Shown: positions 42 through 62,090 of the stretch, in pieces
How positions within the stretch are numbered: the stretch's first letter is position 1
Layout of the letters: the number at the start of each line of letters is the position of its first letter
Assembly (NCBI GenBank): GCA_964358315.1
Contig: CAYHOF010000002.1
Coordinates: 10,738-74,737, forward strand
DNA: 64,000 bases
Reading direction: 5' to 3'
Source: an uncultured Methanosarcinales archaeon
GTDB lineage: Archaea; Nanobdellota; Nanobdellia; Woesearchaeales; ARS49
Translations under genes and position numbers: made by a program
Notes under the pieces: model-generated
Seen by the model: only the letters and a program-made list of their open reading frames with translations
Told to the model about the DNA's origin: nothing
Database searches by the model: none

Positions 42-656
42 CTATTCTTTCGAGAAGCGCGGAAGACGTCCGGGCGGCGCGCTCGGATCGCTGTTATATG
101 CGTTGTAGGCGAAAAAGCGTGCGTTGCGCGTCTTGAACGGAATGTATTCTCCCGGTTCTGGAATGTAGTGCGAAGCGATGCCTGGATTGTCGGACAATGA
201 CAACAGTCCTGCGACGTCAGGGACGATCACGAAGCGTGGTTCTTGTTGGAGATGATAGGGATGGTGTTTCGCTAGTGCCGCATAACGTTCTGCGGGCGTG
301 GCGCCTGCCACAGGGTCGTCATGGATGACGTACGTGAAAGGAAGAGCGTTATCTGCGGTCAGGAGTTTTACGAGGCCTCGCACTGCATCAAGCGGTGACG
401 TGTGATTACCATGCAACGTCGTCAGGACGATGCCACAAGGACGACGCGTCTGTCTCAACCGCGCCATCGCGTTCAGATCATATGCGATGTCGACCAACGA
501 AATCTCCTGACGACAGAATATACGGTACGGCAACAACAGCTCCGATGGCACAGGTTTCTCAACAACATCTGACACAGGACGCCTGTCAAGGATCGGTAGA
601 GAACGGGATGTCGAGGTCACACTTGATCGTGGTTGCGCCTCACGCAGTACTTCCAT
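42..656 (-). CDS. Hypothetical protein with a weak metallophosphoesterase-like GNH motif. The ORF is trimmed to the internal ATG at 656, because the upstream part of the 42..893 ORF overlaps a better plus-strand gene.
   Basis: ORF track 42..893. The N-terminal 80 codons are low-complexity and overlap CDS 784..1239. An ATG at 656..654 sits about 27 nt below a minus-strand TATA (ATTAAATAGG, revcomp of 690-699). The LHGNHT motif is only weakly diagnostic. Confidence 0.35.
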   Translation of the reverse strand: MEVLREAQPRSSVTSTSRSLPILDRRPVSDVVEKPVPSELLLPYRIFCRQEISLVDIAYDLNAMARLRQTRRPCGIVLTTLHGNHTSPLDAVRGLVKLLTADNALPFTYVIHDDPVAGATPAERYAALAKHHPYHLQQEPRFVIVPDVAGLLSLSDNPGIASHYIPEPGEYIPFKTRNARFFAYNAYNSDPSAPPGRLPRFSKE

Positions 657-783
657 CCTAGAAGATATGAACGCGGGCCACGACCTATTTAATCCTTGTG
701 AATCCGCATTGTCGTCACCATCGGCAAAGAGTGATAAAAGTTTATAAGAACGGTTTAAAGAGAATGAGCAGGGGGAAACCATC

Positions 784-1239
784 ATGGGATTCATGGACTT
801 GTTCAAGAAGAAGGAGAAACAGCAAGCAGAATCGCTCACGCTGCCTCCACCGCCGGCGCCTGAAGCGCCCATGCCCAGTTCTGAGGTGCGCATCGTCAGC
901 GAATTGCCTGAGATGAGCGAGATGCAAGCGCCGCAAATGCCTCAAGAACCGATGCATGAAGAAATGCTGATGCGCGAAGAAGCGCCTGCGCCCGAACCGA
1001 TGACGATGCCGACAACGCCCGAGAGGGAACCGCTCTTCGTCAGCGTGCAGGACTACCAGGAAGTGCTTGGCAGCATCGGTTATGTGCGCAACAAGCTCGG
1101 CGAAGCGGACGAACTCGTCAAGAAACTCAACAGTCTCAAGGTTTCAGAAGAGAAGGAATTCGAGGCATGGCGCGCCCAACTCGAAGATTTGCAACGCAAG
1201 CTCGCATACGTTGAAGACGTGATCTTCAGCGCGGGCTGA
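784..1239 (+). CDS. Small coiled-coil protein, paralog 1 of a tandem triplet. It has a Pro/Met/Glu-rich N-terminal region and a C-terminal EFEAW motif.
   Basis: The ORF has GC-rich codon usage. A TATA (TTTATAAG) sits around 741-752 and an SD-like GGGGGAAACC precedes the ATG. The C-terminus shows the same conserved pattern as the next two ORFs: VxV.DY.EVL ... EFEAW ... L..V. Confidence 0.55.
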   Translation: MGFMDLFKKKEKQQAESLTLPPPPAPEAPMPSSEVRIVSELPEMSEMQAPQMPQEPMHEEMLMREEAPAPEPMTMPTTPEREPLFVSVQDYQEVLGSIGYVRNKLGEADELVKKLNSLKVSEEKEFEAWRAQLEDLQRKLAYVEDVIFSAG

Positions 1240-1248
1240 GGTGTACTC

Positions 1249-1485
1249 ATGGACAAGAAGATGCAAGTGTTCATCAAGATCGACGATTTCAAGGACATCA
1301 GCGAGATACTCTCGCTCGCCCACCAGCGCCTCCAGCAAGCGAAGGCAGTCATGAACCGCATCGCGGACCTCAAGGCGCAGGAAGACGCGGAGTTCGAGGC
1401 ATGGACCACCGAGCTCGCCGAGATCGAGCACCGCATCGACAGCGTGGACCGCACGCTGCTCGCGCGCGGCGAGGACGGCCAATGA
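1249..1485 (+). CDS. Small coiled-coil protein, paralog 2 (motif DAEFEAWTTELAEIEH).
   Basis: It has the same architecture as 784..1239 (VFIKIDDFKDISEIL ... EFEAW) and is spaced 10 nt from the upstream gene. Confidence 0.5.
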   Translation: MDKKMQVFIKIDDFKDISEILSLAHQRLQQAKAVMNRIADLKAQEDAEFEAWTTELAEIEHRIDSVDRTLLARGEDGQ

Positions 1486-1868
1486 GCCTGTTCGTCCCTG
1501 TCAACGAGCCGGCCGAGATCCGACGCGAACTGCTCACGAGCAGCAAACAGGTCCTCGGCGCGCTCCGACGGTACGAACACTACAGACAACTCCGCAAAGC
1601 AAAGCTCGAAGCATTCCACGAACTCGTCACCATCTGGCAAGACATGGAACGCATGCAACGCAAGCTGCGCGGCGCGCTGCCAAAGACCGACGTCAAGGCG
1701 CCACCCATCCCGAAGACCGCACCGCTCCACCACATCCCTGCAAAAGTCGCGCCCATGGGGACACGCGCACAACCACCACAAAAGCCCGTGCGCGAACAGA
1801 AATCCAAACTCCAACTCCTCGAAGAACAACTCAACAAGATCGAGAACAAGCTCTCGACGATCAAGTAG
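1482..1868 (+). CDS. Small coiled-coil protein, paralog 3 (motif LFVPVNEPAEIRREL ... LEAFHELVTIW).
   Basis: The ATG at 1482 overlaps the stop of the upstream gene (ATGA), which points to translational coupling. It is a divergent copy of the same motif set, and a coiled-coil tail follows the first helical region. Confidence 0.5.
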   Translation: MSLFVPVNEPAEIRRELLTSSKQVLGALRRYEHYRQLRKAKLEAFHELVTIWQDMERMQRKLRGALPKTDVKAPPIPKTAPLHHIPAKVAPMGTRAQPPQKPVREQKSKLQLLEEQLNKIENKLSTIK

Positions 1869-1975: not shown

Positions 1976-2059
1976 GCGGCGGTGCCGGAGTGGTCAAACG
2001 GGGCGGACTCAAAATCCGCTGGCCTAGCGCCTACGCAGGTTCGAATCCTGTCCGCCGCA
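1976..2059 (+). tRNA. tRNA-Leu (anticodon CAA), class II with a long variable arm. CCA is not encoded.
   Basis: Folded by hand. The acceptor GCGGCGG pairs with CCGCCGC, and the discriminator is A. The anticodon stem CGGAC/GUCCG (corrected: GCGGA/UCCGC) encloses the loop CUCAAAA, giving anticodon CAA. The T-arm is GCAGG-UUCGAAU-CCUGU. A long variable arm and a T-run follow. Confidence 0.85.
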
Positions 2060-10096: not shown

Positions 10097-10591
10097 ATGG
10101 CGAAGAAGATCAAGAACACCGCGAAGAAATCCGCAAAGCCAGTCGTCATCAAGGAAGCTGCTGTCGAGAAGAAGGACGCCGTCAAGCATGACGTGAAGCC
10201 ATCGCTCTTCAAGGCAGGCATCGTGGCGTTCGTGGTCATCGCAGTCATCAATTTCGTCGTGAACGGCATCTTGCTCGCACCGGTGTGGAGCGCGATGGAA
10301 GTCGCGGGCGTGGTGCGCGAAGGCCAGGGCGGCCAGATTGCGCTCGCAGGCATCTTCGGCCTCATGCTCGTCATGGGCTTCGTCCTTGCGTGGCTTGTCA
10401 AGCGTGCGCAGCTCAAGGGCGCAGGCGCTGCATTGGGCTTTGGCGTCGTGATCGGCATCTTCATAGCGGTTCCTGACGTCGCAGGATTCCTGTTCTATCG
10501 CGTGCCTGCCATCGTGCCGATCGTGGGGCTTGTGGCCAACATCGTGGGGTTCGCGCTCGCGAGCATGGCTGCCTGGTTCGTCAACAACTAG
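10097..10591 (+). CDS. Membrane protein with a Lys-rich N-terminus followed by 4 TM helices.
   Basis: The hydrophobic segments were read directly from the sequence. No family was recognised. Confidence 0.45.
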   Translation: MAKKIKNTAKKSAKPVVIKEAAVEKKDAVKHDVKPSLFKAGIVAFVVIAVINFVVNGILLAPVWSAMEVAGVVREGQGGQIALAGIFGLMLVMGFVLAWLVKRAQLKGAGAALGFGVVIGIFIAVPDVAGFLFYRVPAIVPIVGLVANIVGFALASMAAWFVNN

Positions 10592-10633
10592 GCGTCCATA
10601 AGTCTTTTAAGCGGCCAGAAGGGTTGTTCTGGC

Positions 10634-11341
10634 ATGCATGACATACATAGTGCCATCCTTCTCGCTGGAGGCCTTGGGACGCGCTTGCGGCCGCTCACGC
10701 TCACGACACCAAAGCCATTGGTGCCGGTGCAGGGCAGGACGCTGATCGAGATGAATTTCGACATCCTGCGTAAGTTCGGCATCACGGACGTGACGTTGTG
10801 CGTCGGCTATCTTGCGGACACGATCAAGGCGTACATTGGAGATGGTTCTCGTTTTGGGCTCCGTGTTTCGTACTGTGTCGAACACGAGCCATTGGGGACT
10901 GGAGGCGCAATCGCGCAGGTGCGCAGGCCTCAAGGCACGACGCTCGTGATGAACAGCGATAACCTCTACGATATCGATCTCAATGACGTCTACAACAAGC
11001 ACAAGGCATCTGGTGCGCTCGTGACAGACATGCTCACGCAAATCGAGGACCCGACCAAATCAGGCGTCGTGCGGCTCGAAGGAGAAAAAATCATTGAGTT
11101 CGTGGAGAAACCGAAGCTCGAAGACGCGCCTTCACGACTCATCAATGCCGGTTATTACTTGTTCGAGCCCAGCGTGTGGGACCACCTGCCCAAAGGCAAG
11201 TGTTCGCTCGAAAAAGACGTGTTCCCTCTGCTCGCGAGAGACCGGAAGATGAACGCCTTCATCGGCACCGGGCAGTGGTTCCCGACCGACACACCAGAAC
11301 TTCTTGCGCAGGTCAACAATAAATGGGTCCCTGTGCGTTGA
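10634..11341 (+). CDS. Sugar-phosphate nucleotidyltransferase (NDP-sugar pyrophosphorylase family).
   Basis: It has the G-rich loop LLAGGLGTRLRPLT and KPLVPV. Confidence 0.7.
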   Translation: MHDIHSAILLAGGLGTRLRPLTLTTPKPLVPVQGRTLIEMNFDILRKFGITDVTLCVGYLADTIKAYIGDGSRFGLRVSYCVEHEPLGTGGAIAQVRRPQGTTLVMNSDNLYDIDLNDVYNKHKASGALVTDMLTQIEDPTKSGVVRLEGEKIIEFVEKPKLEDAPSRLINAGYYLFEPSVWDHLPKGKCSLEKDVFPLLARDRKMNAFIGTGQWFPTDTPELLAQVNNKWVPVR

Positions 11342-11367
11342 ACGCAAGGTTCTAATACCATCATTGC

Positions 11368-11997
11368 GTGTCAAATGGCGTGGTAAAGACGTCGTGGGAT
11401 GCTGAGGTCAAGAGACACCGTTTGCCGGATCACGATATCGAATTCATTTTCTTGAAGCGTTGGTCGCCGCGTTCGATGACGGGAGAATCTATCGATAAGG
11501 AAGAGCTCATGTCGCTCTTCGAAGCGGCGCGCTGGGCGCCCTCATCGTACAACGGACAGCCCTGGCGTTTCGTCTACGCGATGCGTGGCACGACGCAGTT
11601 CGAGACGTTCTTCAAGTTGCTCACGCCAGGCAACCAAGAATGGTGCAAGGACGCCGCTGTGCTCGTCGTGACGGCGTCGCGTGACACCTTCGAATATAAT
11701 AGCAAACCAGAACGCACGCACACCTTCGACACGGGCGCTGCGTGGGAGAACATTGCGTTGCAGGCAGCGGCGCGCGAGCTCGTGGTGCACGCCATGGAAG
11801 GCTTCGATTACGACAAGGCCGCGAAGGTCTGCAAGATACCCAAAGGCCACACTATCGAGATGATGTTCGCCGTGGGCAAGCGCGGCTCAAAGGACAGGCT
11901 GCCCGAGCGTGTGCGCGAGTGGGAGGCACCAAACGCACGCAAGAAGGTGGAAGAGTTCGCCTTCGAGGGCGTGTTCAAGGAAACGAAGAAAAAATGA
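11368..11997 (+). CDS. Nitroreductase family protein.
   Basis: It has the pattern RWAPSSYNGQPWRFV, a GTG start and a length of about 209 aa. Confidence 0.65.
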   Translation: MSNGVVKTSWDAEVKRHRLPDHDIEFIFLKRWSPRSMTGESIDKEELMSLFEAARWAPSSYNGQPWRFVYAMRGTTQFETFFKLLTPGNQEWCKDAAVLVVTASRDTFEYNSKPERTHTFDTGAAWENIALQAAARELVVHAMEGFDYDKAAKVCKIPKGHTIEMMFAVGKRGSKDRLPERVREWEAPNARKKVEEFAFEGVFKETKKK

Positions 11998-12004
11998 CGG
12001 AAGA

Positions 12005-12319
12005 TTATTTGTGTCCGAAGTAGAACATCTTCTTGATGTCGACGTCTTCGGGCGTGTAGTTGCCCTGGCGCGGGTGGGACGCCGGCTTGTCATCGGAAGG
12101 CAGCACTTTCTGTGCTGGTTCTGATCGCTGCTGCCGTGGCGCGGCCGCCATCTGCGCTTTGAGCTGTTGCATGTCCGACACTTGGGCCTTGATACTCTGG
12201 AACTCCATCGCGAGCGCTTGTATGGTGTCCTTGAGCAGCGTGACCTGCTTGTCGTATTTCTTCATCTGTTGCTCGAAGAGCATCTTGTACCGCTCTTCTA
12301 TCAACGCACTGCCATCCAT
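12005..12319 (-). CDS. Coiled-coil hypothetical protein, the last gene of a 3-gene minus-strand operon.
   Basis: The ORF is 104 aa with heptad-like repeats. It is tightly spaced behind the zinc-ribbon gene. Confidence 0.4.
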   Translation of the reverse strand: MDGSALIEERYKMLFEQQMKKYDKQVTLLKDTIQALAMEFQSIKAQVSDMQQLKAQMAAAPRQQRSEPAQKVLPSDDKPASHPRQGNYTPEDVDIKKMFYFGHK

Positions 12320-12337
12320 GATGATTCCTCCTCTTTT

Positions 12338-12574
12338 TCAGTAGTATGGTTCGAACTTCGGTGTGGTCTGGGGCTCGTTCACGGCCGGTTTTGATTGTTG
12401 TGGCGCCGGGATCTTTGCGCGCTGCACTGTTGAAAGCTGGCCGCTGCACTTGTCGCAGTAGACCTTGTTTCCGTTGCGTTGCGAGATGCACATCTCGCAC
12501 ACGCGCACGCCGCACCAGTTGCAGACGCCGATGATATCCTTGCGGTGCTTGATGCACCGGTCAGCACTACCCAT
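12338..12574 (-). CDS. Zinc-ribbon / B-box-like zinc-finger protein.
   Basis: Cys pairs CIKH...CNWC...CEMC...CDKC fall within 50 aa, consistent with a B-box or treble-clef pattern. Confidence 0.5.
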   Translation of the reverse strand: MGSADRCIKHRKDIIGVCNWCGVRVCEMCISQRNGNKVYCDKCSGQLSTVQRAKIPAPQQSKPAVNEPQTTPKFEPYY

Positions 12575-13315
12575 TCATGCACCCTGGAAGTTCTCCTTGA
12601 TGAACTCGAGCATCATGGTGTTGCCTGCCTTTTCGTAGGCGTCGTGCGCCATGCGCAGCACGCCTTGGCGCAGGCACGTGTCGCCGAGCAGGTTAAGCTT
12701 GTCCTTGTCTTCCGCGCCCGAGTATGACTTGAACGCGTACGCGAGCTGGTTGTCCGCGAGGCAGCGGTCGCCCACCTCGACGAGTTTGGGCTTGCTCTTG
12801 ATGGCGCTGAACACTTCGATGGCGAAGTCCCACTTGGACTTGTTCATGCAGAATTCGCCGACCTTGATGAGCTTCTCGTTGTTGCCGAGCAGCCGGTACG
12901 CCTTGATGGCGTCGCCGAGCCTGCCGTCCGTGAGGCACTTGTCGCCGATGCGCATGAGTTCGTCGCGGTTGTCCGCGAGGCGGAACGCGTCGATGGCGTG
13001 CGAGAACAGCGCGACTTTCTCGTAGTCGTGCCCGATCTCGGTGAGCTTCGAGCGGTTGCCGCTGAGGATGAACGCCTTGATCGCCTGGTCGAGCGAGCCT
13101 TTGCGTTGGTATTCCTCGCCAAGCGCGTTGAGGATGCCGAGGCGTGTCTCCTCGTTGAACATCGTCAGGTTGATGTTGTCCAGGCCTTTCTCGATGAGGC
13201 TTGGGACGATGCGTCGGAAATTGTCCATTTCAGGCTTCTTGTTCAAGACGGCCTGGCTTGCCTGCGCCATGTTGTCGACCATCTTCCTCATAATGACTGA
13301 ATCTTCGGCTGCCAC
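12575..13315 (-). CDS. Tandem-repeat protein with six 29-aa repeats (L..hG..C[LM]..G.L..AI.A[FY]...G), a TPR/HEAT-like solenoid.
   Basis: The repeats were aligned by eye, for example LMRIGDKCLTDGRLGDAIKAYRLLGNNEK and LVEVGDRCLADNQLAYAFKSYSGAEDKDK. Its stop abuts the start of the zinc-ribbon gene. Confidence 0.6.
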   Translation of the reverse strand: MAAEDSVIMRKMVDNMAQASQAVLNKKPEMDNFRRIVPSLIEKGLDNINLTMFNEETRLGILNALGEEYQRKGSLDQAIKAFILSGNRSKLTEIGHDYEKVALFSHAIDAFRLADNRDELMRIGDKCLTDGRLGDAIKAYRLLGNNEKLIKVGEFCMNKSKWDFAIEVFSAIKSKPKLVEVGDRCLADNQLAYAFKSYSGAEDKDKLNLLGDTCLRQGVLRMAHDAYEKAGNTMMLEFIKENFQGA

Positions 13316-14320: not shown

Positions 14321-14330
14321 GATAAAAAAC
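14321..14330 (-). promoter_or_regulatory. TATA box (GTTTTTTATC on the minus strand) 25-34 nt upstream of the tRNA-Gly 5' end.
   Basis: The position relative to the tRNA was read directly. The element overlaps the stop of the PRC-barrel gene. Confidence 0.5.
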
Positions 14331-14629
14331 TACTCTTCTGCCTCGGACTCCTCGCCCGAGTAGCTCGGCACCGCGGCCTTGGATATAATCATGACGTCGC
14401 CGATGCTCTTGACGAGCGTGTGCGGCACGACGACTCCTTTTGCCGAGCCGAGCACCTTGCTCAAGAACGAGTTCTTGGTCGCGCGGACGCGCCAGCCATG
14501 CACTTTGGTCGGTGTGAGCACCGCTTCTTCCACGTCACCGAAATAGTCACCGGTATCCGTGAAGACCTTCATATCGTACGCTTCAGAAACCTTCTTGAGC
14601 TTCAACATCACCATTCCCTCCTTACACAA
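14330..14629 (-). CDS. PRC-barrel domain protein.
   Basis: It matches the small archaeal PRC-barrel pattern (VFTDTGDYFGDVEEAVL...VVVPHTLVKSIGDVMII). The exact start among several N-terminal Met codons is uncertain. Confidence 0.55.
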   Translation of the reverse strand: MCKEGMVMLKLKKVSEAYDMKVFTDTGDYFGDVEEAVLTPTKVHGWRVRATKNSFLSKVLGSAKGVVVPHTLVKSIGDVMIISKAAVPSYSGEESEAEE

Positions 14630-45375: not shown

Positions 45376-48300
45376 GTGACGAACAGACCATACTCGCCCA
45401 TGACCGACCCTGACCAGCTGGATGACGCGCCCGCCACCGAACAGACCGCAGAGGTGTTGCCCGCGCTCCCGATGGACGCCGCGGACATGATCCGCAAGTT
45501 CAAGGAATTCTTCGAACAATACTATTATGGCGAGCTGCTCGAGGCGTTGCGCAAGGGCGAGCGCCACATGGGCATCGACTTCCAGAAGCTCGTGCGCTTC
45601 GACCCGCAGCTTGGCGACCTCGTGCTCGACCAGCCCCAAGACGCGCTCAAGGCAGGCGAGCTTGCCGTGCGCGAGTTCGACGCGAAGGTCAAGCAGTTCA
45701 CCATTCGTCTGAGCAACCTACCTGGCAGCAGCTTCCTCATGTTGCGTCACGTGCGCAGCAGGCACTTGGGCAAGATCATGTTCACCGAAGGGATTGTGCG
45801 CCAGAAAAGCGACGTGCGACCGCAGGTCACGGAGGCGACGTTCGAGTGCCCGAGCTGCGGCAACCGCCTCAGCGTGCTGCAGCTCGACACCACGTTCAAG
45901 GAGCCCACGCGCTGCAGTTGCGGACGCAAGGGGAAGTTCAAGCTCACCGGCAAAGAGCTCGTGGACGCGCAAGGCATCGTGCTCGAGGAGGCCGCGGAAC
46001 AGCTCGAGGGCGGCGAGCAGCCAAAGCGCATGAACATCTTTCTCAAGAACGACCTCGTGAGCCCGATCACCGAAAAAAGAACGAACCCCGGCTCGAAGAT
46101 CCGCATCACCGGCGTCATCAAGGAAGTGCCGATCACGACCAAGTCCGGCGGGACGAGCACGCGTTTCGACCTGCTCATCGAGGCCAACCACGTGCTGCCG
46201 GTCGAGGAGGACTTCTCCGAGATCACGATCAGCAAGGAGGAGATGCAGAAGATCCTCGACCTCAAGAACGACCCACATATCGAGAAAAAGCTCATCGACA
46301 GCGTGGCGCCCAACATCTACGGCCACGAAAAGATCAAAGAAGCGCTCGTCCTCCAGCTCATGGGCGGCGTGCGCAAGACCCGTGACCAGGGCGCGGGCGC
46401 GACGACAAGAGGCGACATCCACATCCTGCTCATCGGCGACCCTGGTTCGGGCAAGTCGCAGATGCTCAAACGCATCAGCAAAGTGGCGTTGCGCGGCCGT
46501 TTCATCTCGGGCAAAGGCGTCTCGGGCGCGGGATTGACCGCGAGCGTCGTCAAGGACGAATTCCTCTCGGGCTGGAGCCTTGAGGCAGGCGCGCTCGTGC
46601 TCTCCAACAAAGGCATCTGTTGCATCGACGAACTCGACAAGATGACGGACGAAGACCGCGCGGCTATGCATGAGGCACTGGAAGGTCAAAGCTATCATCC
46701 TGACACTGAACTGCTGCTCGCGGATGGCAGTCGGACAACGATTGGAAGTTTTGTCGACGACGTGATGCGACAATGCACTGTCGTACAAGGGACCGATTGT
46801 GAATTCGCGTTCCCAAAAGACACCACGATCCTCACCACTGACTTCCAGCGCGTTGCACCTGCACGCATCGCACGCGTGAGCCGTCATCCGGCGCCCACGA
46901 CATTTTTCCGCATCACGTTCTCGAATGGACGCGCCATCACCGTCACGCCCGAACATCCTCTGTTCGTGTACACGCACGGAGAGGTCAGCGTGACGCCCGC
47001 ATGCATGGCCACGGTCGGCACCATGGTGCCGGCGCCCAGACGACTGCCCATCGAAGGACGGGCGGTCGCACTCACGCAACCCGCCAAACAGTATCATCAT
47101 GCCAAACCGCACGTGTTACCGACGCACCTGAACGCCGACCTTGCACGCTTGCTCGGCTACGTCGTCACTGAAGGTCATTGTTATGCGAACCCGACCAACC
47201 GCACGTACGAGATCGGCGTGAGCAATACTGACACGAGAATAATCAATGAGGTCGCCGCTCTGTTCAGGAACATTTTCGCGACCGACGTCATCGTCACAAC
47301 GCAAGCAGCGGACAAGCGAGAAAAAGCGACGCGCGATTTATACACCGTCAGGTGCTGCTCACGTCCTATCCATGATTTTTTCGCGCTGAATTTCCCGGAA
47401 CTCATGACGAAAGCGCCGCGTAAACGCGCTCCCTCCGGCATCATGCGGGCGACGGAGGATTGTGTCCGTGCGTTCTTGCAGGGAGCCTTCCGTGGAGATG
47501 GCACGGTCAGCAGTGATGACGTGGGGTTTGCGACAGCCTCACGAAAACTGGCGGAAGACTACCAGGACCTGATGCTGCGGCTGGGAACGCCATCCATCAT
47601 CCGCACCGAACACCGCAACGCCGCGACGTACCATAAGACCATCGTCACAGGCACGGTGGCCGAAAAAACGCACTGGGCCGATTCCATCGTCGTTGAGGAT
47701 GATCCGCGACATCATCGCATCCGCGCCCTTCTTCGACGTGCTGCGCAGAAGAACAACCAACGCGATCCGGTTCCTTCCGAGATCGCCGCGCTCACGCATA
47801 AGGCGCTTCTCGCGCTGAAAATGGCGGATGGCAATATCTCGAGCACGCTCGCCCGCGGCCACGCGCCCTCACGTCAGACCATCACGACCTACGTCGACAA
47901 GATAGATGGCCGACTCGATCTGATTGCAAGATCAGAAGGACGCACTGCCCGCAGACTCGCCAACGTGCAGGTCAGCTCGCTTGCGGAGGGAATGGGACGA
48001 TCGAGCGGTCACGTCTATAACGCCGAACTGGACCACCATCAGGAACACGCGACATACACCACCGTGCTCGACCGACAGGTCGCCCGGAAGATCGGCACTG
48101 TCCAAGAATTGATGGCTCCTGTCAAGCGTTTCCTCGATGCGGATCTCAGAGTGCACACCATCACGAATGTCGAGAGGATCGACAACCCGGGGATCGCGTT
48201 GGTCTATGACGTCACGGTAGAGCCGCACCACAGCTTCATCAGTCAAGGGATGGTCTTGCACAACACGGTGACGATCAGCAAGGCCAACATCCAGGCGACG

Positions 48301-49068
48301 TTGCGTTGCGAGACCACCGTGCTCGCTGCCGCGAACCCGAAGCTGGGGCGTTTCGACCCGTATGAGATCATCGCGAAACAGATCGACCTGCCGCCGACGC
48401 TCATCAACCGTTTCGACCTCATCTTCCCGATCAAGGACCTGCCTGACCCTGTCAAGGACAACAACATGGCGAGCTTCATCCTCGAGATGCACCGCACCGA
48501 GGCAGGCATGAACGCGACCATCGACACTCCGCTGTTCCGCAAGTTCGTCGCGTACGCGAAACTCCACATCAGGCCGCACCTGAGCGAGGAGGCGATCGCC
48601 GAACTCAAGGACTACTACATCCGCATGCGCGGCAGCAGCTCGAGGGAGAGCGGCGTCGTCAAGAGCATCCCGATCTCGGCGCGTCAGCTTGAAGGTCTCG
48701 TGCGTCTGAGCGAGGCGCACGCACGCATGCGCCTCTCCGAGATCGTCGAGCGCAAGGACGCGCGCAAGGCCATAGAACTCCTCGATTACTGCCTGCGCCA
48801 GATCGCGCTCGACGAGGAGACCGGACAGATCGACATCGACCGCATCGGTTCGGACACGTCGTCGAGCCAACGCAACAAGATCCTCCAGGTCAAGGAGATC
48901 ATCAAGACGCTCGAGAACAAGGTCGGCAAGGTCATCCCGATCGACGACGTCGAGCAGGAAGCCGCCCAGAAGGGAGTCACGGACGCGGAGCTCGACGAGA
49001 TCATCCAGAAGCTCAAGAAGAGCGGCGACGTCTTCGAGCCAAAGAGCGGCTACATCTCACGGATCTGA
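45376..49068 (+). CDS. mcm: MCM replicative helicase interrupted by an in-frame intein. The extein is about 705 aa.
   Basis: The N-terminal OB/Zn domain has CPSCGN...CSCG. Walker A is GDPGSGKSQ. Walker B is CIDELDKM followed by the intein, and the TVTISKANIQATL motif resumes after it. The start is GTG 45376 or ATG 45400. Confidence 0.9.
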   Translation: MTNRPYSPMTDPDQLDDAPATEQTAEVLPALPMDAADMIRKFKEFFEQYYYGELLEALRKGERHMGIDFQKLVRFDPQLGDLVLDQPQDALKAGELAVREFDAKVKQFTIRLSNLPGSSFLMLRHVRSRHLGKIMFTEGIVRQKSDVRPQVTEATFECPSCGNRLSVLQLDTTFKEPTRCSCGRKGKFKLTGKELVDAQGIVLEEAAEQLEGGEQPKRMNIFLKNDLVSPITEKRTNPGSKIRITGVIKEVPITTKSGGTSTRFDLLIEANHVLPVEEDFSEITISKEEMQKILDLKNDPHIEKKLIDSVAPNIYGHEKIKEALVLQLMGGVRKTRDQGAGATTRGDIHILLIGDPGSGKSQMLKRISKVALRGRFISGKGVSGAGLTASVVKDEFLSGWSLEAGALVLSNKGICCIDELDKMTDEDRAAMHEALEGQSYHPDTELLLADGSRTTIGSFVDDVMRQCTVVQGTDCEFAFPKDTTILTTDFQRVAPARIARVSRHPAPTTFFRITFSNGRAITVTPEHPLFVYTHGEVSVTPACMATVGTMVPAPRRLPIEGRAVALTQPAKQYHHAKPHVLPTHLNADLARLLGYVVTEGHCYANPTNRTYEIGVSNTDTRIINEVAALFRNIFATDVIVTTQAADKREKATRDLYTVRCCSRPIHDFFALNFPELMTKAPRKRAPSGIMRATEDCVRAFLQGAFRGDGTVSSDDVGFATASRKLAEDYQDLMLRLGTPSIIRTEHRNAATYHKTIVTGTVAEKTHWADSIVVEDDPRHHRIRALLRRAAQKNNQRDPVPSEIAALTHKALLALKMADGNISSTLARGHAPSRQTITTYVDKIDGRLDLIARSEGRTARRLANVQVSSLAEGMGRSSGHVYNAELDHHQEHATYTTVLDRQVARKIGTVQELMAPVKRFLDADLRVHTITNVERIDNPGIALVYDVTVEPHHSFISQGMVLHNTVTISKANIQATLRCETTVLAAANPKLGRFDPYEIIAKQIDLPPTLINRFDLIFPIKDLPDPVKDNNMASFILEMHRTEAGMNATIDTPLFRKFVAYAKLHIRPHLSEEAIAELKDYYIRMRGSSSRESGVVKSIPISARQLEGLVRLSEAHARMRLSEIVERKDARKAIELLDYCLRQIALDEETGQIDIDRIGSDTSSSQRNKILQVKEIIKTLENKVGKVIPIDDVEQEAAQKGVTDAELDEIIQKLKKSGDVFEPKSGYISRI
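46690..48264 (+). mobile_element. Intein (525 aa) with a LAGLIDADG homing-endonuclease domain, inserted in the MCM Walker B/sensor-1 region.
   Basis: It begins with Ser after ...HEALEGQ and ends in HN, followed by Thr at +1. Block A is SYHPDTELLLADG, and the LAGLIDADG-like motifs are LLGYVVTEG and FLQGAFRGDG. The flanking extein matches the MCM consensus. Confidence 0.8.
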
Positions 49069-53091: not shown

Positions 53092-53609
53092 TGAGCGTAC
53101 GGGCCTTGCGGGTTTCTGGTCGGCACAATAATGCATGATCGCTATGCGGTGGTCTTTTGGCATGATGATGCGATCTTGCTTGTTGTAGACGCGCAGCAAC
53201 GACGCGATCTGGGAGGGATCGTGCCATTCAGGCGCGCGATGGTCGCGGATCGGGAACTGTGCACCCTCGACTGGCATCGATGCGATGGAGAGCGCGACGT
53301 AACGCTTGGACGCGGCCAGGTCGATGAAGTGCGCCATCTCGAGCCCGGCAGGATGCACCGTGGTGTGTGGGCCCAGCAACCGCTCAAGCCACGCGTCAAG
53401 AGTGACGTCTTTGTCGGTCCGGATCGTCGGCAGTTCGAGGATGCCGCCCGAGCGTATCCTGTTCATGCGATACCGTGCCTCCGGTGTCGTGCAGACGAAG
53501 GGATCGTGATGATGCCATTCATAGCGCCGCACGAGCAAGACCTCGTGGTGCGGCACGCCCTCCCGCAGGCCGGTGTAGTTCGTGATGACGACGGGGATGC
53601 CGCTCACCC
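53071..53609 (-). CDS. Hypothetical protein (about 179 aa), apparently translationally coupled to the PolD large subunit.
   Basis: The GTG start overlaps the TGA stop of the upstream PolD gene in a GGTGAG arrangement. It has good GC3 usage and no recognised family. Only the part of ORF 53071..53808 downstream of the PolD stop was kept. Confidence 0.35.
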
Positions 53610-56600
53610 GAACCACCGTCCGAGCCCTTCCTGTTTCTCCTTGTCCTTGCCGAACACGCTTTCGACGTGACATTTGAGCAGATGGACGGTCTGTTTGAGA
53701 TACGGCGAAAGGTCGTACGCCTCGGCGAGGCTGATGGTGGGCTCGAGGTACTTTATCACGCTGCCTTCCGAGATGGTGAAGAGCAGCTTGCCTTTGCACT
53801 TGGTGCATTTGCCAAGCAACGGCGGCCTACGGAATTTCTCGTTGCAGTCGACGCAACGGAATTCCTGACTCGAGAATTTACGCAGGTTGCCGCGTGTGTC
53901 CTTGATGAAGTGTTTTTCTATCACGAGGCGCGCGACGTCCGATGTGTCCACCGCGCGGATCTTGAACGCGAGGTCCATCTGGCCCTTGAGCTTGTCCTCC
54001 ATGCTCGGGATCATCTTGTAGGCGCTGCACAGCACGCCGTTGTTGATATCGGTGGTGTCGTGCGTGAAGCCGAACCCTTCGTACTGTTCTGGTTTGTCGA
54101 GCACGTGCTTGATCTGCAGGATCTTGACTTCCTTTGGCATCTTGTACTCGAGCGCGGCCTCATAGAGCTCGAGCGGATAGCTCCATGCGATGTCCACGTC
54201 GAAGGCCATGTCGTCGACCTCGGAGGGCGTGAGCACGCTCGTGAGCACGAGCGGCGCGTCCATGGTGCCGCCACGGCTCGTGGGCAGGAACTCCTTGGAG
54301 AAATTCAGCATGCCATCGAGCAGCAACATGAAACCCATCTCGTCGCCGTCGCAGTCGCGACGGCATGCGCAGTGGAAGTACGGATGCGCGAGGAACCCTT
54401 GCGTGCGCGAGAACCCGATGATACGACCCACCATGCCCGCGCTCGTGTGCGGCGCGAGCCCGATGATGAGGTGGCCCACAAGATCGTAGGGCGTCTGCAG
54501 GTTGTAATAGCGGGGCAGGCCGTACATGAGTTCGAGCTGGTCGTCGATGAACTTGGTGACGCGATAGAGCACCGCATCGCTGGGCTCGTGCGGTTTGGCC
54601 TCGAGACAGCAGGGGATGACGATGTCCTGCGGCCGCAGCTCGATCACCTGGTCGTCGCGCTCGATCGGCGCGCCTTTGATGTCGTGCGTGTAGCCGAGTT
54701 CGAGCAGGCGCTCGACCGGCGTGCGGATCTCGCGCGGCCGGAAGTGCGTGAGCGCGACCTCGCTGCAATCATAACGGATGGTGCCATCCTTGTTGACATG
54801 CACGTCGTGCTTTGCGCGCAGGACGGACTTGAAGATGTGCTCCGGGACATGAGTGTCGTTCATCATGCCGCGCACGCCCTTGATCTGGTCCGGGAACGTC
54901 GCCATGTGCAGCCGCTTGACGGTGTTCTCGAACATGCGTTTGATGTCGATCTTTCGGCGTTTCGATGACTCGGTGTCAGGCGTCTTGGACTCGGCGTCCG
55001 CCTGGCGGGTGCGCGAGTAGTAGCGTTGACGGGTGCGGGCGCCGCATTGGTCGCACACGCGGTAGATGCAATCGAGCTTGCACACGTCGCAGTACATGAG
55101 CGGGAAGTCGCCGGTAACGCCTCCCTTCTCGAACGCGGCCTGTAACGAGCGGAGACGCCCGCCTTCGTCACCGACAGGACACAGTCCGTGCGGGCTGCCG
55201 GTCATCTTGCGCATCTTCGCTTTCTCAGGACGCCCCATGCGCGAACCGATATAGATGCCGCTCTTGTCGCGCAAGCGGACAGAGGAAAGCTTGTTCACGA
55301 GCACAAGGACGTTCTCCTGGGGGTTCGCCGAGACGAGCGCCGACCCCTTGAGCGCGTCAGGCGCCGCCATCGCGCCGAGCGAGAGCGCGAGCGCGCCTGC
55401 GACCGGCGCATCGATGACGACGAATTCGTTGTTGACGACGGTGTGCGGGACGCCGAGCAGTTCGAGCGCGCGCTTGGGTTCGGCGTCGATGGGCAGCACG
55501 ATCTTGTCGACGAGACCGTCGTGGTCTGTCCACGTGCCTTTCGAGAGCCAGTCACAGAGCAACGAGAACGCGCCTGGCTCGATGTCTGCCCAGTGGTATG
55601 TGTAGAACGGGTGTAATGGCGTGCTCGATCCTTTGGCGAGCGCGAGCGCCTCTGCGAGGGTGGGCTTCGCCAGCATCGGCTCCGCAAGCAGTTCCTTGAT
55701 GCGGGACGCGCCGAGCCCGCACACGTCCGCGGCCTTCTCCATGTCGAGTGAGCCTGTCGTCGTGACGATGCCTTTCTCGACCTCCTTGGCCCACCATTCT
55801 TCGCAGTAGCCTGCGGGCACGAGCGGGTGGGCGCGGTTGACGAAGTCGCCATACGGGATCAGCACGTCGCCGAGGAAGAGTATCTCGCGCACGCGTGGCG
55901 CCATCGCCTTCGCGAGCTTCTCGTTGTCGAGCAGCAGCACGGATCCGTCGTCGATCTTGACGATCGGCCCTTCGATCATGTCGCAGGGCGTGAATGCCGC
56001 GCCTTTGCCCGGCCTCTCGACCTTGAGCTGCGTGCCGGTCGCGATGTAATTGTTGAGGATGTGCATTGTCGCAGGATGGATGCTCTGGCCGCTCAGGCCC
56101 GATGCGCGCGATCTGCCGTAGCGCAAGCGCCATCCTCCTTTGCGCAAGGGGTGCCCGAGGACCGGACGACCTGCGACGAGATCCGCGATGTAGGTGAAGT
56201 CGGGAAGGATCTTGGGACCGCCTTCTTTTTTCGTCGCGCCTTGCGCCTTCATCTTCTTCTGGATGTTCAGGAATTCCTCCATGAAATCCCAGTGCTCCAT
56301 GCCGAAGTCCTTGCCCCACTTGCCGAGCTGGTTCCAGAGCTTGGGGCCTTTGAGCGGGATGCAGCTGCTGAGGATGAGGCAGTAACCGCTGCGGATCTTG
56401 TTGGTCGGGATGCGCGGCAGGTCCTTGTAATTGCTCACGTCCATCTTCTCGCTGGGCTCGCCCGCGACTTCGACAGGGAGGTTCTTCATGAGGAATTCGA
56501 CCTCCGGCTCGCTCGGGTGGTATTGGAGGTTCGTGACGCGGTCGTGGTAGTCCTGCATCTCGACCGACGCGCGCTTGATCTCCTCAGGGGTGGCATCGTA

Positions 56601-57146
56601 CGTGTCGATGCCCATCTTCTTGCGGACGTAGTCCGCGATGATGACGCTCACCGCGGCGGCCGTGCCCCCTGCGTTGCGGATCGGGCCAGCATAGCTGATG
56701 GAGAGGTAGTCGCCGCGGCCGTCGATGCGTTTCTTGAGTTCGATGGAGACGATGCCGTCCAATGGCGAGCTCACGACGCCCACCGTGACGTAGGCGAACC
56801 CTGTCCTGATGCCGATGTCGATGGCCTCCAGTTTCGTCTCGAACGTGCAGAACTTCTGGGCCGCGACCTCCTCGGCGATCTTGAGCGCGACGCGCCAGTC
56901 GAGCGCGCCGAACTGTCTCTCGAGCTCGATGATGCGCTGCACGACACCTGTGCCGACGATCTGCGGCGCGAGCACCGATATGAGACCCTCGACGCGCTCG
57001 GCCATGTTCTCGGCGAGCTTGATCTCGACGTCGTCGGACGGATCGAACCCTGCCGCGCGCGCACGCTTGCCGATGGCGACCATTGCCATCGAGGCCTTCT
57101 TGAGCGTCTCGAAATACCGCTGCATCATCGGGCTCGCGGCGGTCAT
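53604..57146 (-). CDS. dp2: DNA polymerase II (PolD) large catalytic subunit DP2.
   Basis: The 1180 aa protein has the DP2 pattern and a C-terminal zinc finger (CDVCKLDC...CDQCG). It contains no intein. Confidence 0.9.
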   Translation of the reverse strand: MTAASPMMQRYFETLKKASMAMVAIGKRARAAGFDPSDDVEIKLAENMAERVEGLISVLAPQIVGTGVVQRIIELERQFGALDWRVALKIAEEVAAQKFCTFETKLEAIDIGIRTGFAYVTVGVVSSPLDGIVSIELKKRIDGRGDYLSISYAGPIRNAGGTAAAVSVIIADYVRKKMGIDTYDATPEEIKRASVEMQDYHDRVTNLQYHPSEPEVEFLMKNLPVEVAGEPSEKMDVSNYKDLPRIPTNKIRSGYCLILSSCIPLKGPKLWNQLGKWGKDFGMEHWDFMEEFLNIQKKMKAQGATKKEGGPKILPDFTYIADLVAGRPVLGHPLRKGGWRLRYGRSRASGLSGQSIHPATMHILNNYIATGTQLKVERPGKGAAFTPCDMIEGPIVKIDDGSVLLLDNEKLAKAMAPRVREILFLGDVLIPYGDFVNRAHPLVPAGYCEEWWAKEVEKGIVTTTGSLDMEKAADVCGLGASRIKELLAEPMLAKPTLAEALALAKGSSTPLHPFYTYHWADIEPGAFSLLCDWLSKGTWTDHDGLVDKIVLPIDAEPKRALELLGVPHTVVNNEFVVIDAPVAGALALSLGAMAAPDALKGSALVSANPQENVLVLVNKLSSVRLRDKSGIYIGSRMGRPEKAKMRKMTGSPHGLCPVGDEGGRLRSLQAAFEKGGVTGDFPLMYCDVCKLDCIYRVCDQCGARTRQRYYSRTRQADAESKTPDTESSKRRKIDIKRMFENTVKRLHMATFPDQIKGVRGMMNDTHVPEHIFKSVLRAKHDVHVNKDGTIRYDCSEVALTHFRPREIRTPVERLLELGYTHDIKGAPIERDDQVIELRPQDIVIPCCLEAKPHEPSDAVLYRVTKFIDDQLELMYGLPRYYNLQTPYDLVGHLIIGLAPHTSAGMVGRIIGFSRTQGFLAHPYFHCACRRDCDGDEMGFMLLLDGMLNFSKEFLPTSRGGTMDAPLVLTSVLTPSEVDDMAFDVDIAWSYPLELYEAALEYKMPKEVKILQIKHVLDKPEQYEGFGFTHDTTDINNGVLCSAYKMIPSMEDKLKGQMDLAFKIRAVDTSDVARLVIEKHFIKDTRGNLRKFSSQEFRCVDCNEKFRRPPLLGKCTKCKGKLLFTISEGSVIKYLEPTISLAEAYDLSPYLKQTVHLLKCHVESVFGKDKEKQEGLGRWFG

Positions 57147-58612
57147 GCTGCATCACCGCTGCTGAAGTTGAGCACGCTGACCTCGCGAGTCTGGAGGTTG
57201 ACGATGGGCACGCGGCACGGGTCGGGGTTGTGCCCGACTTTCTCCTGGAATTTGGTGCGTGCCTGGAAACAGCTGCCGGAGATGATGGTCACGCCACGGT
57301 AATTGAGGAACGACGACTTGTGGATGTGGCCGGAGAAGAAGAAATCCGGGGCGGATTCGATGACGAGCGCGTCGCGCTGCGGGTCGACGATGAACTGCGT
57401 GCTGTCATAGCTTGGCGCGAGGTGTCGGCGCTGCAGGAGGAACCGCATGATGAGGCTGATGCGCGCCGAGACGTCCTTGCCGCTCTCGCGGATGGAGTCG
57501 ACGCGGTCGCCGTAATAATCGTAGCTGTAGCCGTGGTAGAGCAGCACGTCGAACCCCGGGAAGGTGTCCGTGCGCCCTACCACGACGACCGCAGGGTTGC
57601 TCACGAACGTGATGTTGGGCAGATCATGGAGCACGGGGAGGTACTCGCGCGGGATCTTCGGTTGCGGCTCGGCGAGCCTCACCGCGTCGTGGTTGCCCGG
57701 GCTGATGATGACGCGGATGTGCGCGGGGATCTCCTTGATGAAACGCTCGAACTCCTTGTACTGCTCGTTGATGTCGGGAAGGGTGAGTTCCTTGTTCTGC
57801 GCGGGATAGATGCCGACGCCATCCACCGCGTCGCCGACGATGACGACATACCTGACCTTGCGCGCCATCGCGCGCTGGCGTTCGGTGCCGGTCTCCCCCC
57901 TGAGCCACCGTATGCACTTGCCGAACTCCTCGGGAAGGAAGTTGTTCGACCCGACGTGCGGGTCGGAGAGCACCACAAGATAGTCCTCGGTCGGGGATTT
58001 CTTGAGTTCGTGGGTGAGCGGAACGTCCGGGTGGATGATGTCGCTCACGAAGATGGCGCCGCCCGCATTCTGGCCCAGCACGCCTATCACTTCGTCGAGC
58101 ACGAGGTCTTTGGCTTTCTTGAACATCTGCTCGCGGGACTTGGGGAAGATGAGTTTGACCGACCCGGTGAGGTCCTCGAGGACCACGATGAGGTTGCCGT
58201 TCTTGGTCTCTTGCTTGTCCGCGACAAAGCCGATGAGCGCGACCTTCTCGCGTTCGCCGTTCGGGGACAACCTGCTGATGGACGTCACGGCCGCGAGTTC
58301 TTGGCGTTCGCTCAGGATGCGGGCGAGCGCGCGGAAGCGCGCTTTGAAGTATGCGACGAAGTCGTCGACCGTGACCTTGCGGCCCGCCACGTCGTAGTCG
58401 CGGACGATAACGACGCCGGGCGCTTCGGTCCGCGGCACGCTGCCTATCATCTGGTGGATGTCCTGGCCTGGTTGCGGTGACGCGCTCATGTCATAGAGGG
58501 TGTCGAGGAATCGCGGATCGTTCATCCGTTGCAGGAGGTCGGACGTGACGAGCACGTTGTTCTGTAACAGGAACGTGACCACGTTCTTCTTCTTGTCGAG
58601 TGCGTCAGCCAT
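57143..58612 (-). CDS. dp1: DNA polymerase II (PolD) small subunit DP1, a metallophosphoesterase-fold exonuclease.
   Basis: It has a calcineurin-like phosphoesterase domain (GDAVDG...GNHD) and an N-terminal OB. The start was chosen at the ATG overlapping the orc1 stop. Confidence 0.9.
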   Translation of the reverse strand: MADALDKKKNVVTFLLQNNVLVTSDLLQRMNDPRFLDTLYDMSASPQPGQDIHQMIGSVPRTEAPGVVIVRDYDVAGRKVTVDDFVAYFKARFRALARILSERQELAAVTSISRLSPNGEREKVALIGFVADKQETKNGNLIVVLEDLTGSVKLIFPKSREQMFKKAKDLVLDEVIGVLGQNAGGAIFVSDIIHPDVPLTHELKKSPTEDYLVVLSDPHVGSNNFLPEEFGKCIRWLRGETGTERQRAMARKVRYVVIVGDAVDGVGIYPAQNKELTLPDINEQYKEFERFIKEIPAHIRVIISPGNHDAVRLAEPQPKIPREYLPVLHDLPNITFVSNPAVVVVGRTDTFPGFDVLLYHGYSYDYYGDRVDSIRESGKDVSARISLIMRFLLQRRHLAPSYDSTQFIVDPQRDALVIESAPDFFFSGHIHKSSFLNYRGVTIISGSCFQARTKFQEKVGHNPDPCRVPIVNLQTREVSVLNFSSGDAA

Positions 58613-61448: not shown

Positions 61449-62090
61449 TCACTCGAGCGCTTTGAGTTCTTTCTTTATTTGTTGTATTTCTTCTTCGATC
61501 TGTTTGATGCGTTGCGTGTTGTCTTCTTGTTCCAGCAACTGGCCGCTTTCCGGACATTTGAACTCGTAGTTCATCGCCTGGTCGAAGTCGAGGCGCATCG
61601 TGACAGGCCCGTTGATGAGGGTGCCATCAGGCAGGCGTTCTTTCTGGTAGCACACGTAGAACTGCGTCTTTTGTTCACGCTCGAGCCTCTCCTGTAGTTT
61701 TTCGAGCTTGCGCTTGCGTAGCGTGATGTAGATGTCCTTGATGCGCGGCGGGTTGAACGTCCAGTAATAGATGTACCAGCCCTTCTTCTTGTCCTTGCGA
61801 CGGATGAAGGTCACGAGGTTGTGTTCGTAGAGGCGATAGAGCATGTTGCGCGTGGCGTTGATCTCGCGCGTGAGGGCTTCGGCAAGCGTGAACTCGCTGA
61901 CGTTCTTCTTGTTGCGCAATATCTTCACGAGCGCGAGCACGTCTTTGCCCGCGACTTCGGTGATGACCTCATCCAGCATCGCCGCGGCCGCGCGTCCTGC
62001 GCCTGCCGGCGCTTTGGCTTTCGCAGGCTTTTTTGGCGTGGGTTGCTTCGCGGCAGGCTTTTTGGCCTTGGGCTTTGTCTTAGAAGGCAT
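61449..62090 (-). CDS. tfe: Transcription factor E alpha (TFE), with a Lys/Ala/Pro-rich N-terminal tail.
   Basis: It has a wH (LTREINATRNMLYRLYEHNLV), a zinc-ribbon region and a C-terminal coiled-coil. Confidence 0.75.
   Translation of the reverse strand: MPSKTKPKAKKPAAKQPTPKKPAKAKAPAGAGRAAAAMLDEVITEVAGKDVLALVKILRNKKNVSEFTLAEALTREINATRNMLYRLYEHNLVTFIRRKDKKKGWYIYYWTFNPPRIKDIYITLRKRKLEKLQERLEREQKTQFYVCYQKERLPDGTLINGPVTMRLDFDQAMNYEFKCPESGQLLEQEDNTQRIKQIEEEIQQIKKELKALE

Follow-up and report, generated by a model that had tools for sequence, protein, structure and literature searches.

A conserved operon of small coiled-coil proteins in DPANN archaea, possibly a peripheral-membrane tether

What do three consecutive small genes encode that lie at positions 784-1868 of a 64,000-nucleotide stretch of archaeal DNA (contig CAYHOF010000002.1, positions 10,738 to 74,737; this whole stretch is the window below) and whose products fall into no recognised family? 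The host is a groundwater Woesearchaeota/Nanoarchaeota metagenome-assembled genome (MAG), and identical proteins occur in a 'Nanoarchaeota archaeon' MAG at NCBI and in the Hainich groundwater assemblies. The question concerns the DPANN archaea, whose genomes are minimal and whose cell biology has hardly been characterised by experiment. In this study we find that all three are genuine genes in a conserved and tightly packed operon, that the first and third of them, here called A and C, are a conserved unit across lineages, and that the second, B, is a Woesearchaeal duplicate of the core of A. Our tentative suggestion, to which we would give somewhat less than an even chance, is that the operon encodes a peripheral-membrane, heteromeric acid-base coiled-coil tether that works like SepF or CdpC and is not homologous to them.

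An earlier note on this DNA had described three open reading frames (ORFs) of 151, 78 and 128 amino acids, partly coupled in translation, and both the coordinates and the sizes that it gave are right. The features of the operon, with coordinates and strand in the window, are as follows.

741-748, +: TATA-like box TTTATAAG, read from the sequence, with a purine-rich stretch before it, 36 nt upstream of the ORF1 ATG
771-775, +: G-rich Shine-Dalgarno-like element GGGGG ahead of ORF1
784-1239, +: ORF1, the A subunit, 151 amino acids, net charge -13, no cysteine and no transmembrane segment
1238-1243, +: Shine-Dalgarno-like element GAGGTG, overlapping the ORF1 stop, 5 nt upstream of the ORF2 ATG
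1249-1485, +: ORF2, the B subunit, 78 amino acids, net charge -6, consisting of the core only (strand motif VFIKI and a long helix)
1482-1485, +: ATGA start/stop overlap of ORF3 and ORF2, read from the sequence, which would couple their translation
1482-1868, +: ORF3, the C subunit, 128 amino acids, net charge +12

The coupling proposed earlier is thus seen in the ATGA overlap of ORF2 and ORF3, while ORF1 and ORF2 are separated by 9 nt that contain the GAGGTG element. The 128-residue start of ORF3 is supported by its homologues, all of which open with MSLFVPV, and TTTATAAG is the putative archaeal promoter of the operon. Conserved synteny in related genomes, which the earlier note had asked about, was looked for and found, the A-B-C order being kept in Woesearchaeota: wherever a related locus is long enough, homologues of the three genes follow one another as they do here, and this includes all loci of our genome scan that extend far enough, with B not made out in one of these (L023). 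In the related loci the ORFs mostly abut or overlap, the listed starts being those of the longest ORF. A 286-residue ORF on the opposite strand (1080-1940) was also considered as a true gene and ruled out, as its homologues are matched in just 6 loci; it fits an antisense artefact of high-GC DNA, which is our own inference. On the other side of the promoter region, the gene divergent to ORF1 (42-893, minus strand) shows no family match, and its longest ORF runs over the ORF1 start; its true start is probably the ATG at 654-656 (MEVLREAQ...), which would leave a divergent promoter region of 127 bp. Directly 3' of the operon stands a tRNA-Leu(CAA) gene (1976-2059, plus strand) followed by a T-run, and a TATA-like CTTTTATATA at about 1892-1901 would give this tRNA a long leader.

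Are the three proteins related to each other? They had been taken for a tandem paralogous triplet, and this holds for two of them. ORF2 aligns to ORF1 residues 84-151 in BLASTP (E 1e-10), and the family profiles of the A core and B match in hhalign at 98%, or at 99.8% (E 7e-28, 76 columns) when richer profiles of 173 and 40 sequences are used, so that the ORF1 core and ORF2 are paralogues. ORF3 is at best a distant relative. BLASTP finds no match between ORF3 and ORF1 or ORF2, and hhalign with narrow profiles gives 0.9-16% (16%, then below 4% with Woesearchaeal profiles). When the ORF3-family profile is broadened to about 65 sequences drawn from several lineages, it matches the A core at 41% (P 2.7e-4, 60 columns), B at 40%, and a single-protein relative described below at 50% (P 1.6e-4, 103 collinear columns including the tail), the P values of these broad-profile comparisons ranging from 1.6e-4 to 2.9e-4. 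The scores observed are 25-30 and none of 100 column shuffles reaches them (maxima 14-17). In the ORF3 family, a position-specific scoring matrix of the strand motif only falls short of significance (median z 1.1). In a proper alignment, therefore, the similarity of ORF1 and ORF2 is significant, whereas that of ORF3 is only borderline, above both shuffles and reversed controls; ORF3 is a borderline relative and probably a very old paralogue of ORF1 and ORF2.

The likeness of the three cores is more apparent in their layout. The hydrophobic [FI]V.V..D segment pointed out in the earlier note is indeed common to all three proteins, in which neither its distance from the helix end nor its heptad phase differs. 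When the three families are anchored on the Phe of the h-F-V-x-[IV] motif, hydrophobic positions coincide in A, B and C at +9, +13, +20, +33, +41, +44, +48, +51, +58 and +62, the 3.5-residue heptad phase is -137, -135 and -128 degrees for A, B and C, and every helix ends at +62/63 from the motif. The proposed equivalence of the helix ends EFEAW and LEAFHELVTIW did not survive, the Trp of ORF3 being lost outside its closest relatives. Across the families the net charge of the 64-residue cores is -2.5 for A (negative in 81%), -4.5 for B (negative in 100%) and +4.5 for C (positive in 100%), and the core charges of A and B are complementary to those of C. Because of the equal helix length, the identical register from the strand motif, the opposite charge, the translational coupling and the gene linkage, the cores would be expected to form an acid-base heteromeric coiled coil, and a hetero-oligomer of three co-transcribed small alpha-helical proteins is the natural reading of such an operon.

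Outside the cores, A and C carry parts on which the first reading had not touched and which are the most informative ones: an N-terminal hydrophobic-polybasic motif with LPPPP behind it, an acidic and a basic linker, and a conserved C-terminal helix of ORF3. The parts of the two proteins are as follows.

784-819, +: A residues 1-12, MGFMDLFKKKEK, a hydrophobic/aromatic patch and then a polybasic run
820-1029, +: A linker, residues 13-82, acidic, Pro/Glu-rich, of variable length, predicted disordered
841-855, +: LPPPP motif, A residues 20-24, with invariant columns L20 and P21-P24
1030-1236, +: A core, residues 83-151, strand motif PLFVSV and then one continuous helix 88-150 (63 residues), acidic, with a heptad pattern throughout
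1488-1676, +: C core, strand motif LFVPV (residues 3-7) and helix 11-65, basic, with the length and heptad phase of the A and B cores
1677-1805, +: C linker, residues 66-108, basic, Lys/Pro-rich, predicted disordered
1806-1862, +: C terminal helix, residues 109-127, KSKLQLLEEQLNKIENKLSTIK, a conserved heptad helix

The AlphaFold2 models agree with this division, giving for ORF1 disorder in residues 1-87 (predicted local distance difference test, pLDDT, about 50) and a single helix 88-150 with pLDDT above 90, and for ORF3 a helix 11-65 with pLDDT above 90, a segment 66-108 below 50 and a helix 109-127 of about 85. The N-terminal consensus of A, M-G-L-F-x-(F/K)-K-K-K-K (MGLFxxFKKKK), is conserved across 94 A-type proteins; it is kept in lineages with separate A and C genes and is missing or altered in several single-protein forms. 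We take it as a putative peripheral membrane-binding motif, by analogy with systems discussed below. A PIP box (Qxx[LIM]xx[FY][FY]) at this place was considered and rejected, as the motif starts at Met1 with no room for the Gln and many members have MGLF and KKKK without a second aromatic pair. The LPPPP element reads (E)LPPPP in Woesearchaeota and ELPPLxFPELP in the lineage with A and C only. Across the family the A linkers have a median of 86 residues and 17% Pro and are net negative in 91%, and the core consensus is 'PLFVSVDDYxxIL...EAE...LNELKNEEDKEFEKWRxQLEDIERKLxYVDKVIF'. Nearly all the long matches listed share one build, with MG(L/F)xx(F)KKKK, (E)LPPPP, a Pro/Glu-rich linker of 40-300 residues and a core of about 70 residues; short ORF2-type members are also among the family matches, and these occur only in Woesearchaeota-type loci. 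In C, the linkers are net positive in 84% of the family, and the terminal helix has the consensus SKxDxLEEELAKIEE(R/K)LGxLE, a three-heptad element with invariant positions K109, L113, L117, K119, I120, E121 and L124. This helix is kept in all C lineages and in the single-protein form, and is a putative partner-binding or fold-back element. In one lineage the C-type proteins (L069 at 53-445 on the minus strand, L081, L089-L091) have their core helix and terminal helix separated by 30-50 residues of Lys/Pro repeats (KPKAKPKP...), the basic linker in an extreme version, and such repeats resemble histone-H1-like tails. The translations of ORF1, ORF2 and ORF3 contain no cysteine and no transmembrane segment (maximum KD19 0.58).

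How widely is this gene set distributed? A word-indexed search returned just 9-15 relatives per ORF, and the impression of a tiny family was overturned by an exhaustive profile search of 1.84 billion representatives, in which 3308 proteins pass E<=1e-3 and 1257 of them also E<=1e-10. From the species genomes of GTDB a scan yields 23 loci, 12 of them titled Woesearchaeota, Nanoarchaeia or Nanoarchaeota, 2 'archaeon' and 9 'uncultured Methanosarcinales', the last of which we take as a submitter placeholder label. These placeholder titles aside, all organism names recovered are those of DPANN lineages (Woesearchaeota/Nanoarchaeia, Pacearchaeota and Aenigmarchaeota), so the protein family is to date confined to DPANN archaea. 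A further 80 loci came from a metagenome scan that started from divergent A proteins, and in the pooled, de-duplicated set the arrangements are the following.

A-B-C: 32 loci, Woesearchaeota type
A-C: 32 loci, without B, one protein named Pacearchaeota
B-C: 6 loci, the A gene upstream cut off or diverged too far
A with a C-like gene divergent upstream: 9 loci, the C-like protein being of the same build
single protein: 13 loci, an A-like front with its own C-like terminal helix, one member named Aenigmarchaeota
other A-only or A-B loci: 9 loci, 7 cut by the contig end, 1 with too little room to tell and 1 unexplained

The C-like protein encoded divergently has the strand motif, a helix of about 55 residues, a Lys/Pro-repeat linker (KPKAKPKP...) and the terminal helix, and the single-protein form has an A-like N-terminus, linker and core, matching the A core at 97% (E 4e-11). 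The linkage of A and C thus outlasts the loss of B, the inversion to a divergent arrangement and a complete turnover of neighbours.

That no family would be recognised, as the earlier note had it, was borne out by the profile searches. Pfam (ORF1-3 at E<=10, and 77 family members at E<=0.01), NCBIfam and PHROGs give only sub-threshold coiled-coil noise for ORF1-3, and so do PDB sequences searched with the single proteins and a 77-member profile and Foldseek against PDB; the sub-threshold matches treated as such noise are ATG16, Med9, MtrG, EttA and AbiK. No account of this module turned up in our literature search. According to Castelle et al. 2021 (PMC8204110), Pace- and Woesearchaeota have in common a block of 51 families, most of them unknown, and the A, B and C genes may belong to it. 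The family is new, and its inferred principle, an anchor-linker-interaction module, is known from non-homologous systems. Like SepF, these proteins are small and cytoplasmic with no transmembrane segment, and a putative short N-terminal membrane-binding segment, a flexible linker and a C-terminal interaction domain would match the layout of SepF; in SepF, however, a compact alpha/beta core dimerises and binds the FtsZ C-terminal peptide, whereas here the core is a single helix of 63 residues and the system would be hetero-oligomeric, with two or three gene products. Membership in SepF (PF04472) is rejected by the lack of a match in the Pfam scans and by the AlphaFold2 model of a single long helix in place of an alpha/beta domain. 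CdpC (HVO_0399), the haloarchaeal FtsZ1 anchor (bioRxiv 10.64898/2026.07.16.738847), is similarly lineage-restricted and fast-evolving; it differs in having zinc fingers in its N- and C-terminal domains, in being a single protein and not a coiled-coil heteromer, and in showing no sequence similarity to ORF1-3, and since its zinc fingers are indispensable and ORF1-3 have no cysteine, membership is rejected. Both SepF (PMC8178401) and CdpC (bioRxiv 10.64898/2026.07.16.738847) are anchored by short N-terminal motifs. With ESCRT-III the operon shares an N-terminus of the MGLF...KKK type, linkers rich in Pro and Glu and, on ORF3-type proteins, a C-terminal helix that resembles LxxRLxxL; here the two end motifs belong to different polypeptides, the alpha1-alpha2 hairpin core is absent, these genomes are not known to have a MIT/Vps4 partner, and membership in ESCRT-III/Snf7/PspA is rejected, with no Pfam or NCBIfam match for ORF1-3 or the 77 members and one helix per subunit. 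In ESCRT-III, too, short N-terminal hydrophobic/basic motifs anchor the subunits. Crenarchaeal CdvA is archaea-specific, contains a coiled coil, binds membrane and DNA and recruits a partner through a short C-terminal peptide, but its N-terminal PRC-barrel and the E3B peptide that binds the CdvB winged helix are both missing from ORF1-3 and there is no homology. The opposite net charge of partner helices recalls coiled coils of the Fos/Jun type, a physical analogy only, and an acidic Pro-rich spacer on one chain with a basic one on the other recalls the Glu-Pro and Lys-Pro spacers of TonB-like proteins, with no relation in sequence or function. Two further candidates were discarded: phasin, a Joint Genome Institute (JGI) label on some ORF3 homologues that is probably a coiled-coil artefact, as no phasin family is matched in the ORF1-3 scan, and prefoldin, which has no match among ORF1-3 or the 77 members and joins two helices by beta hairpins where each chain here has a single helix.

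A peripheral-membrane tether appears to be the best reading of these data because the A N-terminus resembles the membrane ends of SepF, CdpC and ESCRT-III and no transmembrane segment is present. In the model that we propose, the hydrophobic-polybasic motif of A would stick to the inner face of the cytoplasmic membrane, and the acidic Pro-rich spacer would connect this membrane end to the strand motif and the acidic 63-residue helix, of which B would be an extra, anchor-less copy in Woesearchaeota only. The cores would form an acid-base coiled coil of parallel helices in a common register, A with C in general and A, B and C together here, so that the A linker with the membrane end and the C linker with the terminal helix would leave the bundle at opposite ends. 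The basic tail and terminal helix of C could then be presented to a cytoplasmic partner, for which the nucleoid or the division/segregation machinery is our most plausible guess. A more far-reaching version, which we regard as rather unlikely, would make A/(B)/C a DPANN-wide cytoskeletal adaptor, a split, charge-zippered coiled-coil tether from the membrane to the division ring or chromosome, evolved from a single ancestral protein still present in Aenigmarchaeota-type genomes by duplication and subfunctionalisation into anchor and effector subunits.

Several observations weigh against the tether. The helical hydrophobic moment (muH) of the A N-terminus is not above shuffles, which rules out a classical amphipathic helix; we therefore describe this end as a linear hydrophobic-polybasic motif, and membrane binding rests on analogy. 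Reversed profiles, which keep the heptad periodicity, score 17-22 against the 25-30 observed for ORF3, and coiled-coil sequence bias inflates profile similarities. The cores are probably parallel, on no other basis than the shared N-terminal motif and register. The gene neighbourhood gives no consistent partner across lineages: in Woesearchaeota the operon usually lies between GyrA, ScpB and an MJ0538-like winged helix-turn-helix (wHTH) protein on the divergent side and RNase J-PCNA on the other, in this window the gene upstream of the operon differs and ScpB is not a neighbour, genes for an M50 peptidase, TFE-alpha and AlaRS flank it in the A-C (Pacearchaeota-type) lineage, and no conserved genes were found around the single-protein form. 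Deriving the function from the neighbourhood is therefore ruled out, as the ScpB, MJ0538-like, GyrA, RNase J and PCNA genes are conserved only within Woesearchaeota; the gene context indicates a housekeeping region and names no partner.

The candidates for the effector end are the nucleoid, the division ring and, weakest, an ATPase of the MIT type recruited through a MIM1-like pattern. In the first case the Lys/Pro-rich linker of C would bind DNA non-specifically, giving a membrane-nucleoid tether with a function like that of Noc or RacA-DivIVA in bacteria, or of CdvA. The predominantly positive C linkers, with their long Lys/Pro repeat in one lineage and the overall charge of +12, speak for this possibility, as do the position of the Woesearchaeota operon divergent to ScpB and beside GyrA and PCNA and a window rich in Cdc6, PolD, MCM and PCNA. 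However, a basic linker could equally pair with the acidic linker of A or with acidic lipids, no recognisable DNA-binding fold is present, and the linkage to ScpB is absent from the A-C lineage and from this window, so we consider it unlikely that this is the function. An anchor of the division ring is, in our view, no more and no less probable. It would be the DPANN counterpart of SepF or CdpC, tethering FtsZ or another division filament that the C terminal helix or the cores bind; that anchors of this sort may evolve fast and be confined to one lineage is seen from CdpC, and in Woesearchaeota the same neighbours, ScpB, GyrA and PCNA, are cell-cycle genes, with the operon kept in minimal genomes. 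Against this, the proteins have no homology to SepF or CdpC and no cysteine, hence no zinc fingers, linkage to FtsZ or SepF is seen in none of about 100 loci, and the neighbours differ from one lineage to the next. SepF is present in FtsZ-using archaea including DPANN (PMC8178401), and as archaea with FtsZ also have SepF, an anchor may already exist.

Two other readings dispense with a specific partner or with the complex itself, and both seem to us quite improbable. Coiled-coil polymers could shape or stabilise the membrane as a self-assembling submembrane scaffold or filament, a coat like DivIVA, crescentin or phasin. The long single helices, the peripheral-membrane motif and the phasin label on some ORF3 homologues would suit such a coat, and the terminal heptad helix could join complexes end to end; yet the helices are short (about 9 nm) with long disordered linkers on their flanks, and ORF1-3 and the 77 members have no Pfam match to phasin or DivIVA. 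The borderline similarity of ORF3, with reversed profiles scoring as high as they do, would allow that there is no complex at all, but three independent small proteins whose adjacency is inherited and whose ORF1/ORF3 resemblance is generic coiled-coil bias. What argues against independence is that the A-C linkage persists through neighbour change, loss of B and inversion, that the single-protein form carries both ends, that the opposite core charges hold in 100% of the B and C members, and that starts and stops overlap. The last possibility starts from the C consensus ...ELAKIEERLGSLE / IENKLSTIK, which we take to resemble MIM1, and from MGLFxxFKKK, which we presume to resemble the N-termini of CHMP proteins. 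An ESCRT-like scheme, in which A has an N-terminus like those of ESCRT-III (MGLFGK...) and the MIM1-like C terminal helix (LxxRLxxL[K/R]) recruits an AAA ATPase with a MIT domain, both motifs standing at the ends of Pro-rich linkers as in ESCRT-III, can be set aside as highly improbable, for no Snf7/ESCRT-III or PspA match appears among the 77 members scanned, the last MIM1 position is usually Glu and not Lys or Arg, heptad helices fit loose patterns easily, the 64-kb window has no MIT or Vps4 gene, and DPANN go unmentioned in an archaeal ESCRT survey (PMC10936438).

The coiled-coil tether, held as tentatively as above, has the merit of making testable predictions: an acid-base heteromer, lipid binding by the 12 N-terminal residues of A and a partner for the 20-residue terminal helix of C. 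The module has thousands of sequence-diverse relatives, no homologue in described families and the hallmarks of a membrane tether. Because the two- or three-gene module is kept in every Woese- or Pacearchaeal locus examined, it is a strong candidate for a core cellular function, which could be to hold the division or segregation apparatus, or the nucleoid, at the membrane. Should it prove to be no more than structural filler, it would join the many lineage-specific unknown families, of which Castelle et al. 2021 counted 51 in Pace- and Woesearchaeota together. The module also appears to offer a clean and testable example of splitting, one lineage having a single protein where another has an acidic anchor and a basic effector.

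Elsewhere, too, the window is rich in replication genes and related ones, among them RNase J, PCNA, an intein-containing MCM, PolD DP1/DP2, Cdc6, Hef and TFE-alpha. Within the MCM helicase (45376-49068, plus strand, 1230 residues; Pfam MCM) lies an intein that carries a homing-endonuclease domain of the LAGLIDADG type (Intein_splicing, LAGLIDADG_3). PolD DP2, DP1 and Orc1/Cdc6 stand in a row at 53604-59819 on the minus strand, a typical archaeal replication-origin neighbourhood, and oriC may lie near 59.8-60.4 kb, the GC content falling to 0.49 in the 60-62 kb bin. TFE-alpha, at 61449-62090 on the minus strand and about 60 kb from the operon in this window, is the immediate divergent neighbour of the A-C pair in the Pacearchaeota-type lineage (L032, 5167-5817, minus strand), which is probably chance synteny of housekeeping genes. 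The MJ0538-like protein of about 190 residues (L001 4296-4862 and L002 4866-5420, both on the minus strand, and 20 further loci) carries the precomputed label PF27325 'MJ0538' and a wHTH-like C-terminal end, and matches nothing in NCBIfam or the PDB. Its gene always precedes that of a long ScpB (about 400 residues) and in most cases diverges from the A-B-C operon; the protein could be a partner of ScpB of the kleisin kind. At 14330-14629 on the minus strand the window encodes a PRC-barrel protein of 99 residues, which scores above the gathering threshold of Pfam PRC (E 4e-5). The PRC-barrel proteins CdpB1/2 have recently been shown to act in FtsZ-based archaeal division, and by analogy the gene found here may serve division in this DPANN archaeon. 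Finally, a 246-residue TPR protein with two small genes (about 156 residues, with a weak VBS_C3G9-like match, and about 87 residues) occupies 12090-13315 on the minus strand; the same set recurs downstream of PCNA in several Woesearchaeota loci (L011 at 10168-11651, L014, L022 and L028) and looks like another conserved set of small genes.

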